From the sequence record OZ035803.1: DNA of 39,854 nt, one strand, 5' to 3'. This DNA comes from Kayfunavirus LI10P1. Under the pieces are notes generated by a model. It searched no databases. It was not told the origin of the DNA and was given only the letters and a program-made list of their open reading frames with translations. Below, in pieces: positions 3,895-6,301 of this stretch (the first letter of the stretch is position 1; each line of letters begins with the position of its first letter). The position numbers and the translations under genes are program-made.

Positions 3895-4011
3895 GTACCA
3901 CATCAACACGAAACAACGGTGACGACCAACACTGAAACGGTCTACCTGAAGTCCTCTGACTGAAGGGAATGCTCTTTAACAATCTGGATAAACTCTTAAT
4001 GTGCGCCGATA

Positions 4012-4070
4012 GCGACTAACTACAGGGCCTTTGAGTCTACATCTGAAGGCCCTGACTGATAGTCACTAAC
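4012..4070 (+). promoter_or_regulatory. Early-region conserved hairpin element, copy 1 (probable RNA processing site)
   Basis: gcgactaactaCAGGGCCTTtgagtctacatctgAAGGCCCTGactgatagtcactaac: 9-bp stem with 14-nt loop, immediately upstream of the RBS of the first early ORF. Confidence 0.45.
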
Positions 4071-4086
4071 TTAAAGGATGGACACT

Positions 4087-4332
4087 ATGAAACACTTAAG
4101 CACAATCACTAACAGCAATGAAGTATTCGTGAACACTAAAGGCTATGCGTGGATTCAGCTTAAAGAGATGACAGGAGCGCGTCACCGTGTGGTAGTGCGC
4201 AAGGTATCAAGCAAGCCGTTCAGCAACTACAGCGTAGATACTGTGCGCATAGACAACGAGACATACCTGATAGATTCGCAGATAACCGTGAGTCCTACAG
4301 CGGGCGTCTCAGCTCCTTATTTCGCTAACTGA
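4087..4332 (+). CDS. Hypothetical early protein (first early gene, upstream of ocr)
   Basis: 81-aa ORF (track ORF 4078..4332; ATG 4087 preferred because AGGA is 9 nt upstream); lies between a host promoter plus hairpin and ocr; no recognisable motif. Confidence 0.6.
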   Translation: MKHLSTITNSNEVFVNTKGYAWIQLKEMTGARHRVVVRKVSSKPFSNYSVDTVRIDNETYLIDSQITVSPTAGVSAPYFAN

Positions 4333-4336
4333 GAGT

Positions 4337-4390
4337 GATTAACTACAGGTCGTTAGACTCATAGCGGCCTGACTGATAGGCACTAACACA
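4337..4390 (+). promoter_or_regulatory. Early-region conserved hairpin element, copy 2 (covarying stem)
   Basis: gattaactaCAGGTCGTTagactcatAGCGGCCTGactgataggcactaac: arms pair over 9 positions using two G-U wobbles; flanks (gattaactacagg / gactgatag-cactaac) are conserved with copies 1 and 3. Confidence 0.45.
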
Positions 4391-4415
4391 TACTTAACTT
4401 TGAGAGGATATAACT

Positions 4416-4922
4416 ATGGAACGTAACGCTAACGCATACTATGAGCTGCTGGCTGCAACCGTTGAGGCATTTATCGAGCGTATTCAGTACGACCACCTGA
4501 CTCAAGATGACGACTACAGCGATGCGCTGCATGAGGTCGTAGGCGGTCAGGTCCCGCACTATTACCACGAGATTTTCACGGTGATGGCTGCTGATGGTAT
4601 AGACCACGAGTTCGAAGACTCTGGGCTGATGCCTGAAACCAAGGACGTAACGCGTATCCTACAAGCTCGCATCTATGAGGCGCTTTATAACGATGTGTCT
4701 AATAGCTTGGATGTAGTCTGGTTTGAGGATGAAGAGGCAGACGAAGAGGATGAATATTGGGTAGTTGACGCTAAAACAGGCGCAATAATTGTGCAAGCTG
4801 TAGCTCTTGAGGTCGCTACTGCATGTGCCAAGGTTAACTATGCGGCAGGTCGCCACCTGAAGGTGGAAGACATCAATGATAACGTAGTGTTCGACCCTGC
4901 GGCTGAGGACTGCGAGCGATGA
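4416..4922 (+). CDS. ocr: Ocr-like DNA-mimic anti-restriction protein (T7 gp0.3 homolog) with a C-terminal extension
   Basis: Residues about 20-115 align with T7 Ocr as recalled ([43 protein letters not shown] versus T7 [43 protein letters not shown]); acidic stretch [10 protein letters not shown]; about 50 extra C-terminal residues; RBS GAGAGGA. Confidence 0.85.
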
Positions 4923-5089
4923 TAACTTACGGTTTATGCCAGCACCACGTCACCAACGCCCGACTTATGGTCAAGACCGGGCGATTAAACCACGAGGAGT
5001 CTATGCGTCTCTTGAAAGTGGTCTACAGGAGACGCAAGCGCATACACGACAGCTTACACTCTGAGGATAACCAACAATGTACCAGATAA
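4919..5089 (+). CDS. Hypothetical small basic protein (56 aa); weakly supported
   Basis: ATG overlaps the ocr stop (ATGA); [28 protein letters not shown]..; no strong RBS; not in the supplied track (below its length cut-off). Confidence 0.3.
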
Positions 5090-5160
5090 CTTATAGCAGT
5101 GAACAGGCATTCTACGATGGGTGCTACGAGCTGATGAAGCGCGATACTTGCTAGCGATAG

Positions 5161-5218
5161 TGATTAACTACAGGGTCTTTGAGTCTACATCTGAAGGCCC
5201 TGACTGATAGTCACTAAC
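5161..5218 (+). promoter_or_regulatory. Early-region conserved hairpin element, copy 3
   Basis: tgattaactaCAGGGTCTTtgagtctacatctgAAGGCCCTGactgatagtcactaac: near-identical to copy 1 with a C-to-T change that keeps pairing as G-U; directly upstream of the ORF at 5235. Confidence 0.45.
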
Positions 5219-5234
5219 AACTGAGAGGACAGAT

Positions 5235-5462
5235 ATGAACACAATCACTGGTGCCATAGCCAAAGGTTTTCGAGCAATTTTCAGTGAATCGCAAGAAGTA
5301 TGCACCAATCATAAATTCGTACTTTCTTGCGTAGTAGGGGACGAGTTTGACGGATTCGATAAACTGGTGGTTTGCGACCATTGTGGACAAGAGGCTATCC
5401 AACGCTCAAACGGTAAATTTGAATTAATAGACGATAGCCTTACAGAAGGAGACGGCGAGTAA
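5235..5462 (+). CDS. Hypothetical early protein (75 aa), Cys-containing
   Basis: RBS GAGAGGA 8 nt upstream; contains C..C and CDHC (possible metal-binding); no recognisable homolog from memory. Confidence 0.55.
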   Translation: MNTITGAIAKGFRAIFSESQEVCTNHKFVLSCVVGDEFDGFDKLVVCDHCGQEAIQRSNGKFELIDDSLTEGDGE

Positions 5463-5594
5463 CCTAGATAAACAGGAGAGAACCAAATCGTAGCTTGACC
5501 ATAACGCTGACAGGTGGATACTGAGTGATAGACGAGAGGTCATCGACTGATAGGTGGCCTCAAAGATTACCACTTACATTAATAGGAGTTAACT

Positions 5595-5684
5595 ATGAAT
5601 ATCGGTTACTGGGTGTGCTTATCTCCGGTCATCTTTCTGATAGGGTATGGGATATACGACTGTATTAAACGGAAATCACTATGA
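5595..5684 (+). CDS. Putative small hydrophobic peptide (29 aa)
   Basis: RBS TAGGAG 5584-5589; MNIGYWVCLSPVIFLIGYGIYDCIKRKSL (single predicted transmembrane segment); stop overlaps the next ATG (ATGA); below the track cut-off. Confidence 0.3.
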   Translation: MNIGYWVCLSPVIFLIGYGIYDCIKRKSL

Positions 5685-5878
5685 GTCTTGCACTATTGAT
5701 AGCCATAGGCTATGGACTTATCGCATACGTGCTGGTGAGAGACATCAACAAGGCACGTAAAGTCTATAAATTCAACTATGTACGTATGGTCCGCTGGACT
5801 GTACGTCAACCTAACGGACGATTCCTGCGCAATTTAGCGAACGTCTGGGATATAGCAACTCTTGGGAGCAAACTGTAA
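5681..5878 (+). CDS. Hypothetical early membrane protein (65 aa)
   Basis: N-terminal hydrophobic segment LALLIAIGYGLIAYVLV followed by a basic region; translationally coupled to its neighbours (overlapping stop/start). Confidence 0.5.
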   Translation: MSLALLIAIGYGLIAYVLVRDINKARKVYKFNYVRMVRWTVRQPNGRFLRNLANVWDIATLGSKL

Positions 5879-6204
5879 TGAACAAGTCATACGGGATTAA
5901 TCTGGTACACTCTATGGACGCAGAAATGAACATGTTAAGCCTACTGGCTACCGGGTATCGTCACGGAACGTCAAGTCACACCGCACGTCAACAGCAGGAG
6001 CGGGACCGTGTACTACAGGCGCGACTCCGGGCAGAGGGCCATAAGTCCGAACTGATGTGTCTGGCGTATGGTGGACGACCAATCACCGACGATGGTAAAC
6101 TTCTGGTATCAGGCTGGAAGGCGATAGACCAACGGTCAACCATCAAGCACACGACCAAAGGTGACTTCAGTCATCTTCACGCTAACCCACTGATATGCAA
6201 GTAA
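5878..6204 (+). CDS. Hypothetical early protein (108 aa), last gene before the RNAP gene
   Basis: ATG overlaps the previous stop (TAATG); no similarity to the T7 0.7 kinase as recalled; position corresponds to T7 genes 0.6-0.7. Confidence 0.55.
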   Translation: MNKSYGINLVHSMDAEMNMLSLLATGYRHGTSSHTARQQQERDRVLQARLRAEGHKSELMCLAYGGRPITDDGKLLVSGWKAIDQRSTIKHTTKGDFSHLHANPLICK

Positions 6205-6209
6205 TTATG

Positions 6210-6232
6210 ACTTAACTATCACTATAGGACTC
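6210..6232 (+). promoter_or_regulatory. Phage RNAP promoter immediately upstream of the RNAP gene
   Basis: acTTAACTATCACTATA-GGACTC, one mismatch to the family consensus (same variant as the promoters at 2699 and 29425); +1 G at 6227, 75 nt before ATG 6302. Confidence 0.65.
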
Positions 6233-6301
6233 AAGGTCTAAGACTCCAAGTGAAAGACCAAAGAGACTCTAAGTGAAAGACTAATAACAAGGACTTTAAG
6301 T

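Follow-up and report, generated by a model that had tools for sequence, protein, structure and literature searches.

Four small candidate host-directed genes between ocr and the RNA polymerase gene of Kayfunavirus LI10P1, a coliphage without a detectable gp0.7-like kinase

Does a T7-like phage that lacks the protein kinase of T7 gene 0.7 encode something else in its place? The question is raised by the genome of Kayfunavirus LI10P1 (sequence record OZ035803.1; the whole stretch of 39,854 nucleotides is hereafter called the window), in which positions 5235-6204, upstream of the RNA polymerase gene, carry open reading frames (ORFs) of 75, 29, 65 and 108 amino acids (aa), all on the + strand. T7 likewise has its genes 0.4-0.7 in the interval from the anti-restriction gene to gene 1, and both sets are small, non-essential, deletion-prone early genes. 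In T7, gp0.4 inhibits FtsZ, gp0.6 inhibits MreB and gp0.7 is a kinase and shut-off protein, and the early genes of the T7 group have been a repeated source of inhibitors of central host proteins. Our comparisons resolved the early region of the window into two units. Unit A (5154-5490) is a horizontally acquired cassette of 337 bp, which brought its own hairpin copy and a single gene, that for the 75-aa protein. Unit B (5595-6204) comprises the 29-, 65- and 108-aa genes, which are translationally coupled and kept as a block across the genus directly 5' of the RNA polymerase gene. The kinase is absent, and the small genes do not stand in for it. We consider it rather probable that the two units form a kinase-independent early accessory region of ocr-type Kayfunavirus phages, the products of which would be directed at the host.

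By its sequence relatives, the window is a whole genome of a K1F-like (Kayfunavirus) coliphage, circularly permuted relative to K1F (ocr lies at 4416 here and at 1114 in K1F). The phage is of the ocr type, and positions 5235-6204 make up the right half of its early (class I) accessory region. The 2.4 kb around the four ORFs are 96.5% identical to Kayfunavirus vB_EcoP-101120B1-2 (Autographiviridae, Studiervirinae), and 282 phage records match. The record of vB_EcoP-101120B1-2 holds the same ORFs between 'protein Ocr' and the RNA polymerase gene, each annotated 'hypothetical protein'. Essentially the same order was found in K1F, the type species of Kayfunavirus, and ~220 relatives, namely ocr (~168 aa), a gp0.4-like ORF, one or more small membrane ORFs, gene 0.6 (65 aa, 92% identical to the 65-aa gene of the window), a 108-aa homolog and an 893-aa RNA polymerase, the kinase being absent. 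K1F differs from the window in that it has no 75-aa gene, carries a 108-aa homolog shortened to 65 aa and unannotated, and holds an unrelated 55-aa ORF in the slot of the 29-aa gene. The first-pass annotation, which had listed the four ORFs exactly where we found them (Table 1), had missed two further ORFs in the interval between ocr and the RNA polymerase gene, of 56 aa (4919-5089) and 25 aa (5077-5154). Its observation is largely correct but describes a normal, already sequenced and catalogued K1F-like early region, as the closest relatives already carry all four ORFs in databases as hypothetical proteins.

The lack of a 0.7-type kinase, proposed from the sequence at first sight, held when T7 gp0.7 was searched against the whole window by tblastn (best E = 0.71). 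The same kind of search readily picked up the Kayfunavirus-type kinase in relatives, at 29-35% identity. This kinase (244 aa) is 40.6% identical to the kinase domain of T3 gp0.7 (E = 4.5e-41) and corresponds to the kinase domain of gp0.7 only, without the shut-off domain. We found it in a minority of Kayfunavirus genomes, comprising Enterobacter phage EP1 (locus L084 of our comparison set) and loci L091, L092, L095, L098, L099, L101 and L107, and the gene is also listed for Enterobacter phage B1 (PMC12785254). The type phage K1F has no kinase annotated or detectable. Across the phage collection, ~47 records carry a Kayfunavirus-type kinase (at least 60% identity) against 222 with the 108-aa gene; most of the genus therefore lacks the kinase, which is present in only about one fifth.

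To place the four ORFs among their relatives, 25 related Kayfunavirus loci were compared, on which reference proteins were positioned by tblastn. The right-hand part of the early region was stable in these loci and read [29 aa]-65 aa-108 aa-RNA polymerase. The left-hand part varied between two types, one with ocr, the gp0.4-like ORF and a 41-aa ORF, and the other with S-adenosylmethionine (SAM) hydrolase, small ORFs and the 244-aa kinase. The kinase was present in 8 of the 25 loci; all eight were of the SAM-hydrolase type, all eight carried both the 65- and 108-aa genes, and no ocr-type locus had a kinase.

These counts bear on the idea that the small genes are encoded instead of the kinase. 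A functional version of this idea supposes that the four ORFs, or at least the 75- and 108-aa genes, do the job of gp0.7 in host shut-off or in broad counter-defence, the T7-group kinase having recently been found to disarm defences broadly (PMC13645617). Position lends it some appeal, since the kinase slot of SAM-hydrolase-type genomes, between the remnant of the 41-aa ORF and the 29-65-108 block, is occupied in the window by the 75-aa cassette, and the 108-aa gene stands directly 5' of gene 1, where gp0.7 stands in T7 and T3. Nevertheless, the 29-65-108 block coexists with the kinase in the eight kinase-bearing loci. Likewise, among 80 loci around gp0.7 homologs drawn from IMG/VR to count co-occurrence with the kinase, a homolog of the 65-aa protein (32-47% identity) lay ~30-900 bp upstream of the kinase gene in 62; the loci without it were mostly close T7 relatives, with T7-type 0.5 and 0.6 genes instead. 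Most kinase-less relatives, K1F included, do without the 75-aa gene, which was found in 55 records compared with 222 for the 108-aa gene, and profile-profile comparison of the 108-aa family with the gp0.7 family gave an hhalign probability of 0.8%. We regard functional substitution as improbable. In the loci compared, the missing kinase is not replaced by these small genes, Unit B being present with or without it; the word 'instead' in the first-pass annotation does not hold.

That the four ORFs are genes at all was assessed on homologous DNA from 5-26 related loci. Differences at codon positions 1/2/3 numbered 40/30/131 for the 75-aa ORF, 70/57/183 for the 29-aa ORF, 243/148/436 for the 65-aa ORF and 297/211/612 for the 108-aa ORF. 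Pairwise ratios of nonsynonymous to synonymous divergence (dN/dS) were 0.05-0.18, 0.06-0.26, 0.14-0.52 and 0.04-0.66, respectively. GAGG/AGGAG motifs lie upstream of the 75- and 29-aa ORFs. The stop codon of the 29-aa ORF overlaps the start codon of the 65-aa ORF (ATGA, 5681-5684), and that of the 65-aa ORF overlaps the start of the 108-aa ORF (TAATG, 5876-5880), so that the three ORFs constitute a translationally coupled block. Some of the ORFs might, on the other hand, have arisen by chance or be genes in decay, given that the region is prone to deletion, with frequent natural deletions and fusions, that a neighbouring 25-aa ORF (5077-5154) is a truncated remnant, and that the 29-aa ORF is very short. 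This we consider most improbable, as dN/dS falls well below 1 and third positions dominate the differences even in the 29-aa ORF with its 17 homologs, starts are coupled or preceded by ribosome-binding sites, and the genes are conserved across >200 genomes. The codon-level comparison indicates that all four ORFs are real genes under purifying selection.

Real genes need not be indispensable ones. Natural in-frame fusions were found that join ocr to the C-terminal 24 residues of the 75-aa protein, the gp0.4-like ORF to the tail of the 65-aa protein, and the 29-aa peptide to the same tail (P0006 and P0236 are examples of fusions in the region), and locus L097 has neither the 29- nor the 65-aa gene. 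Natural deletions and in-frame fusions of this kind fit dispensable accessory genes. Recurrent deletions in the early region are also familiar from the class I genes of T7.

The boundaries of Unit A were evident from sister loci L088, L089 and L090, which align to the window up to position 5153 and again from 5491, their own intervening DNA amounting to ~15 bp. The cassette consists of two parts. Positions 5155-5218 are 95% identical to positions 4007-4070, i.e., a duplicated 64-bp element, and positions 5215-5488 are 87% identical to the DNA of phage Bas70 (L003, 3980-4254), a member of the genus Kagunavirus. The insertion shortened a 41-aa ORF to 25 aa. We found a second insertion site of the 75-aa gene, between the 65- and 108-aa genes, in phages 1RS and AN24P4 (Table 1). 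The copy at this site is more divergent (75-77% identity), and in 1RS a duplicate of the 3' end of the 65-aa gene lies beside it and gives rise to a small chimeric ORF. As the two insertion sites differ, the 75-aa gene must have entered the early regions of Kayfunavirus phages at least twice.

The 75-aa gene is carried by 55 phage records, about half of them Kayfunavirus (39-40 kb) and about half Kagunavirus siphoviruses (42-45 kb), to which the former are unrelated. The Kagunavirus carriers include Bas70, Bas73, Bas75, Golestan and K1ind1, with 74-93% protein identity, and in the Kagunavirus context the gene comes first after a divergently transcribed Cro/helix-turn-helix (HTH)-like regulator. 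Between the window and Bas70, the gene showed a synonymous divergence (dS) of 0.69 and a nonsynonymous divergence (dN) of 0.03; with so high a dS and so low a dN, the protein is strongly constrained. The family is tiny, 5.8 billion proteins having yielded six clusters and IMG/VR eight loci. No match was found in 5,426 complete E. coli genomes, and no relative in a peptide-pattern scan of one genome per species from 185,579 GTDB species; a bacterial or prophage origin of the gene was rejected on these grounds. The same strain label, '22664', appears in the names of two Kayfunavirus phages and one Kagunavirus phage, all with the 75-aa gene. Both genera need the surface glycans of wild E. coli (PMC11990801), a dependence that implies a shared pool of hosts.

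Two labels among the matches look doubtful. The single 'plasmid' match for the 75-aa gene, CP088689.1 (44,086 bp, 'E. coli plasmid' from blood), is of Kagunavirus type and probably a phage genome. An 'Acinetobacter phage' record (39,611 bp) has nearly the same 75-aa match as the E. coli Kayfunavirus 1RS (39,612 bp), and the two carry adjacent accessions (PV615262.1/PV615263.1).

The 75-aa protein is acidic (isoelectric point, pI, 4.5), with an acidic C-terminal tail. The first-pass annotation had read a CxxxxC..CDHC pattern in it; the family alignment gave C23-x2-H26-x5-C32 ... C47-D-H-C50-G, with C23, H26, C32, C47 and C50 invariant. The two knuckles, C23-T-x-H26 and C47-D-x-C50-G51, were invariant in all six family clusters. 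Residues 46-58 gave a weak Pfam match, below the family cut-off (E = 0.034), to the adenylate kinase lid, in its zinc-knuckle part. A model by AlphaFold2 (AF2) showed four short strands, with a mean predicted local distance difference test (pLDDT) score of 59. Against PDB folds the model had no match at E <= 0.001, and the zinc-ribbon protein Trm112 appeared only at E = 1.3; matches to the N-lobe hairpin fold of kinases (~30 residues, E > 0.5) were dismissed as chance matches of a low-confidence model. The family profile found nothing among PDB sequences. With its two conserved metal-ligand knuckles, the protein is a putative zinc-ribbon or zinc-knuckle candidate.

In its distribution, the 75-aa gene resembles morons and counter-defence genes such as ocr, SAM hydrolase and the anti-CRISPR genes that lie by HTH regulators. 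It is small, patchily distributed and exchanged between unrelated phage families, it is inserted at two sites, and it lies in the early region beside known counter-defence genes and, in Kagunavirus, next to an HTH gene. It differs from them in that its product resembles no characterised counter-defence protein in sequence or fold. Early location, dispensability, patchy distribution and horizontal transfer are what would be expected of an accessory gene for counter-defence or takeover, and the 75-aa gene shows all of them; the 29-, 65- and 108-aa genes show only the early location and, in some genomes, dispensability. Alone of the four, the 75-aa gene has additional, circumstantial support for a counter-defence or takeover role in its patchiness, its transfer and its two sites.

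What such a protein might do is suggested, at first glance, by its acidity. An acidic DNA mimic with anti-restriction activity, like Ocr or ArdA, would agree with a pI of 4.5 and an acidic tail, and with a gene that lies near ocr in the early region of the window and first in the early operon of Kagunavirus. Kagunavirus phages, however, are reported to be highly sensitive to restriction-modification (RM) systems (PMC11990801), three of the isolates, Bas70, Bas73 and Bas75, being carriers of the gene. The phage studied here has ocr already; the model predicts a core formed by a small beta-sheet that bears Cys/His knuckles rather than an elongated, acidic helical mimic; and neither ocr nor any PDB chain resembles the protein. 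A DNA mimic is thus quite unlikely. We consider the 75-aa protein, which has a putative zinc-ribbon core and a gene distributed as in an arms race, the best counter-defence candidate of the region. It is tempting to speculate further, and only tentatively, that it founds a new mobile counter-defence family, which would move between strictly virulent Kayfunavirus podoviruses and Kagunavirus siphoviruses, neutralise a defence or restriction factor typical of the capsulated or O-antigen-bearing E. coli on which both groups grow, and occupy in ocr-type Kayfunavirus genomes the slot that SAM-hydrolase-type relatives devote to the broad anti-defence kinase.

Unit B differs from the cassette in its relatives. 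The 65-aa protein is 39.7% identical to T3 gp0.6 (also 65 aa) over 63 aa (BLASTP, E = 6e-9) and matches phrog_2385 (E = 2.4e-31); with an N-terminal transmembrane helix and a basic tail, as in T3 gp0.6, and a corresponding gene position, the protein is, on homology and these features, an ortholog of the T3 gene 0.6 protein. Its pI is 11.0, and the basic tail contains a conserved motif, R(W/F)TVRxPNGRF; the C-terminal 10 residues vary between genera. K1F's own copy of the gene is annotated as gene 0.6. This name, also used in Dev2, would suggest T7 gp0.6 but follows T3 numbering; identity with T7 gp0.6 was rejected, as the two are unrelated by hhalign. In T3, a B-like promoter and an RNase III-like hairpin precede gene 0.6, the same order as here, but gene 0.6 is followed by 0.65 and the 0.7 kinase, whereas the 65-aa gene of the window lies between the coupled 29-aa gene and the genus-specific 108-aa gene.

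The 29-aa ORF encodes a predicted transmembrane micropeptide with 17 homologs at 66-90% identity. The hydrophobic N-terminal helices that had been noticed in two of the ORFs were borne out by hydropathy, the best 19-residue Kyte-Doolittle mean being 1.66 for the 29-aa peptide and 2.32 for the 65-aa protein (residues 1-19). T7 gp0.5 is likewise a small membrane protein. In K1F (L085, 1840-2007) and several relatives, an unrelated 55-aa protein with two predicted membrane helices is encoded in the place of the 29-aa gene or beside it; the small membrane ORF 5' of gene 0.6 is hence itself variable.

It is conceivable, if rather unlikely, that the 29- and 65-aa proteins, perhaps joined by the 108-aa protein, serve phage physiology proper at the inner membrane, as a conserved takeover function and not as part of an arms race. 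Superinfection exclusion, tuning of DNA entry or of lysis timing, or perturbation of the envelope or cell shape, comparable to the action of T7 gp0.4 on FtsZ and gp0.6 on MreB, could be the roles in question. The 65-aa family is kept across T3-like, KP32-like and K1F-like genera, in which it coexists with the kinase, and its cytoplasmic motif is invariant; the 65-aa gene is under purifying selection and translationally coupled to the gene for a second transmembrane peptide; and a gp0.4-like gene lies upstream, T7 gp0.4 acting on the cell-division machinery (PMC9372555). Against this, hhalign detected no similarity to T7 gp0.5 or gp0.6, and neither gene is constant within the genus, both being missing from L097 and the 29-aa gene being exchanged for an unrelated one in K1F.

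The 108-aa protein is basic, helical and specific to the genus. Its family, named gp0.38 in phages EcoDS1 and CR8, comprised 151 clusters, all on phage contigs of roughly 40 kb. Variation in the N-terminus gives proteins of 83-86, 108 or 130-139 aa, whereas conservation extends over residues 25-108 and is almost complete in the C-terminal tail, HTTxGDFSHLHANPLICK. When 1.84 billion proteins were searched with the family profile, only 15 representatives came up, small phage proteins apart from two long repetitive proteins (E ~1e-5 to 1e-3) that we regard as chance matches. The AF2 model consists of helices, located at residues 36-88, with a pLDDT of ~90 for residues 41-88 and below 50 for the tail, and matched only its own family among BFVD and PDB folds. 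A PDB sequence-profile match of the family to one coiled-coil (E = 0.49) was set aside as chance. That the protein is a remnant of the shut-off domain of gp0.7 was rejected on the hhalign comparison given above (24 vs 77 sequences).

None of the four ORFs had resembled T7 genes 0.4-0.7 at first reading, and none turned out to be an ordinary homolog of a fragment of them. BLASTP against T7 gp0.4-0.7 gave nothing convincing. The 75-, 65- and 108-aa proteins belong to phrog_32657, phrog_2385 and phrog_7066, and the 29-aa peptide to no PHROG family; T7 gp0.4, 0.5, 0.6 and 0.7 belong to families 7202, 16572, 8393 and 2828, none of which includes any of the four ORFs. The 29-, 65- and 108-aa families gave hhalign probabilities of 0.1-0.7% against T7 gp0.5, T7 gp0.6 and T3 gp0.65. 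The check by remote homology and structure, made by sequence searches for all four and by fold searches with the AF2 models of the 75- and 108-aa proteins, returned no characterised relative.

How the region may be expressed is suggested by its intergenic elements. Four hairpins, each of the type stem-internal loop-stem, were found at 4010-4070, 4330-4392, 5158-5218 and 5520-5590, where they precede, in this order, an 84-aa ORF, ocr, the 75-aa gene and the 29-65-108 block. In their flanks, the hairpins are similar to the annotated RNase III sites R0.3, R0.5 and R1 of T3, and the hairpin at 5520-5590 has the architecture of the other three and of R0.5; we infer that the hairpins would serve as RNase III sites. 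The element at 5155-5218 appears to have travelled with the inserted cassette or to have been recruited to it. A sigma-70-like promoter candidate precedes the last hairpin, so that the T3 order of B promoter, R0.5 and gene 0.6 is mirrored here by the sigma-70-like site, the hairpin and the 29- and 65-aa genes. The right-hand boundary of the region is marked by a consensus promoter of the phage RNA polymerase, ACTTAACTATCACTATAGG, 74 nt 5' of gene 1. Exact CACTATAGG sites occur nine times in the window against 0.28 expected by chance, the site at 6210-6228 being one of them and sharing the flanking consensus common to the others. The annotations of T7 and T3 show no phage promoter at the corresponding position. 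If active, the promoter would have the polymerase transcribe its own gene. Within 6210-6301, the promoter consensus is followed by two direct repeats of AAGTGAAAGAC.

The reading that we favour, a two-unit, kinase-independent early accessory region, would then work as follows. The four ORFs lie in the left-end region where T7-group phages keep host-directed genes. The region would be transcribed early by the host RNA polymerase, and cuts at the RNase III-like hairpins would yield one message for the 75-aa gene and another for the 29-65-108 block. The products would act on host components and not on phage replication or assembly. The 75-aa protein would most likely bind zinc through C23, H26, C47 and C50, and would most likely inhibit a strain-specific host factor, e.g., a defence protein, in the glycan-coated wild E. 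coli that serve both phage groups as hosts. The 29- and 65-aa proteins would most likely reside side by side in the inner membrane, the basic tail of the latter facing the cytoplasm, and the 108-aa protein would most likely use its invariant, His/Cys-rich tail to engage a metal ion or a partner. Known counter-defence genes, ocr or SAM hydrolase and the kinase, occupy the same region across the relatives.

Several points weigh against this reading. Searches of Pfam, NCBIfam, PADLOC, PDB and folds gave the four products no match to any characterised protein. For the 75-aa protein, the AF2 model is weak, so that the zinc-ribbon fold rests on the sequence motif, and the set of zinc ligands is uncertain because C32 is also invariant. 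If a counter-defence factor at all, the protein is not a general anti-restriction one, as the Kagunavirus carriers stay sensitive to RM. The broad conservation of the 65-aa protein in Studiervirinae would suit a housekeeping-like takeover role better than a strain-specific arms race. Early expression and RNase III processing are read from position and from the resemblance to T3, and a sigma-70 scan of the region gave eight sites against 5.3 +/- 2.4 in shuffles, i.e., no enrichment. On balance, the best-supported reading of the four is that they encode dispensable, host-directed early proteins; for the 29-, 65- and 108-aa genes, genomic position is the sole basis for suggesting an anti-defence or host-takeover role. 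To call them candidate host-takeover or anti-defence genes, as had been done from the sequence, is a reasonable hypothesis.

Table 1. Positions of the features discussed, in window coordinates unless a locus of the comparison set (L number) is given.
Feature	Position	Strand	Remarks
gp0.4-like ORF, 56 aa	4919..5089	+	start overlaps ocr stop; probable remote T7 gp0.4 homolog
25-aa ORF	5077..5154	+	first 25 codons of the 41-aa ORF kept in other Kayfunavirus genomes
Cassette insertion, 337 bp	5154..5490	+	carries the 75-aa gene; duplicated 64-bp hairpin element plus ~275 bp of Kagunavirus-like DNA
RNase III-site-like hairpin before the 75-aa gene	5158..5218	+	lower stem, internal loop, upper stem; copy of the element at 4010-4070; -25.5 kcal/mol, z = -2.75
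75-aa gene	5235..5462	+	acidic protein; phrog_32657 match; putative zinc-ribbon mini-protein; mobile accessory gene
Sigma-70-like promoter candidate	5495..5522	+	TTGACC, 16 nt, GATACT; consensus score 9/12
RNase III-site-like hairpin before the 29-65-108 block	5520..5590	+	9-bp upper stem plus lower stem within 5520-5585
29-aa transmembrane micropeptide gene	5595..5684	+	genus-specific; first cistron of the coupled trio; AGGAG 7 nt upstream
65-aa gene	5681..5878	+	T3 gene 0.6 ortholog by homology; N-terminal transmembrane helix, basic tail
108-aa gene	5878..6204	+	basic, helical, genus-specific protein; phrog_7066 match
Phage RNA polymerase promoter consensus ACTTAACTATCACTATAGG	6210..6228	+	right after the 108-aa gene; right-hand region boundary
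Second-site copy of the 75-aa gene, vB_Eco_1RS	L110 1501-1786		
Second-site copy of the 75-aa gene, Kayfunavirus AN24P4	L111 1501-1715		
244-aa kinase gene, Enterobacter phage EP1	L084 1917-2651		kinase domain only

The genes immediately upstream complete the picture of the region. The ocr homolog (4416-4922) encodes 168 aa, of which the Pfam ocr domain covers residues 8-94 only; T7 Ocr is 117 aa long. The C-terminal extension of ~55 aa, also present in K1F (169 aa), is unannotated and contains a moderately hydrophobic stretch at residues 122-140; in the ocr homologs of kinase-bearing loci, the match is confined to roughly the first 103 residues. The 56-aa ORF that follows matches phrog_5058 (E = 2e-24), as does T7 gp0.4 (E = 9e-5). 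It is 34% identical to T7 gp0.4 over 41 aa (BLASTP, E = 1e-3), and its family aligned with that of T7 gp0.4 at an hhalign probability of 79.8% (E = 1.5e-5, 41 columns); its dN/dS was 0.18-0.64. With moderate confidence, based on this homology and on its position just 3' of gene 0.3, we assign it as a remote member of the gp0.4 family. In locus L012 of another T7-group phage, a gp0.4-like gene of the 56-aa type stands where the T7-type 0.4 would be. A fusion protein that includes the gp0.4-like part has a precomputed assignment to PF26807, a family to which our Pfam search gave no match. As for the 25-aa ORF, a tblastn search with 'hypothetical protein 18' of Enterobacter phage EP1 (41 aa) matched here with residues 1-25 only, the full 41-aa ORF is present in L087-L090 and other loci, and backbone homology with the loci carrying it ends at 5153. 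The ORF is thus probably a remnant of the 41-aa ORF that was cut by the insertion of the cassette.

What this region offers is a prioritised list of candidates rather than a discovery, and its content would not surprise a specialist; database records already hold the genes many times over as hypothetical proteins. Some novelty lies in the 75-aa cassette alone. For the biology of the genus, the comparisons mean that most Kayfunavirus phages, many of which are candidates for therapy against capsulated or O-antigen-bearing pathogenic E. coli, manage without the broad anti-defence kinase. The 29-65-108 block would be a conserved takeover module, present irrespective of the kinase, and its middle gene, common to T3-like and KP32-like relatives, would make one target serve for many phages. 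The cassette, with a gene distributed in the manner of arms-race genes, is the best lead.

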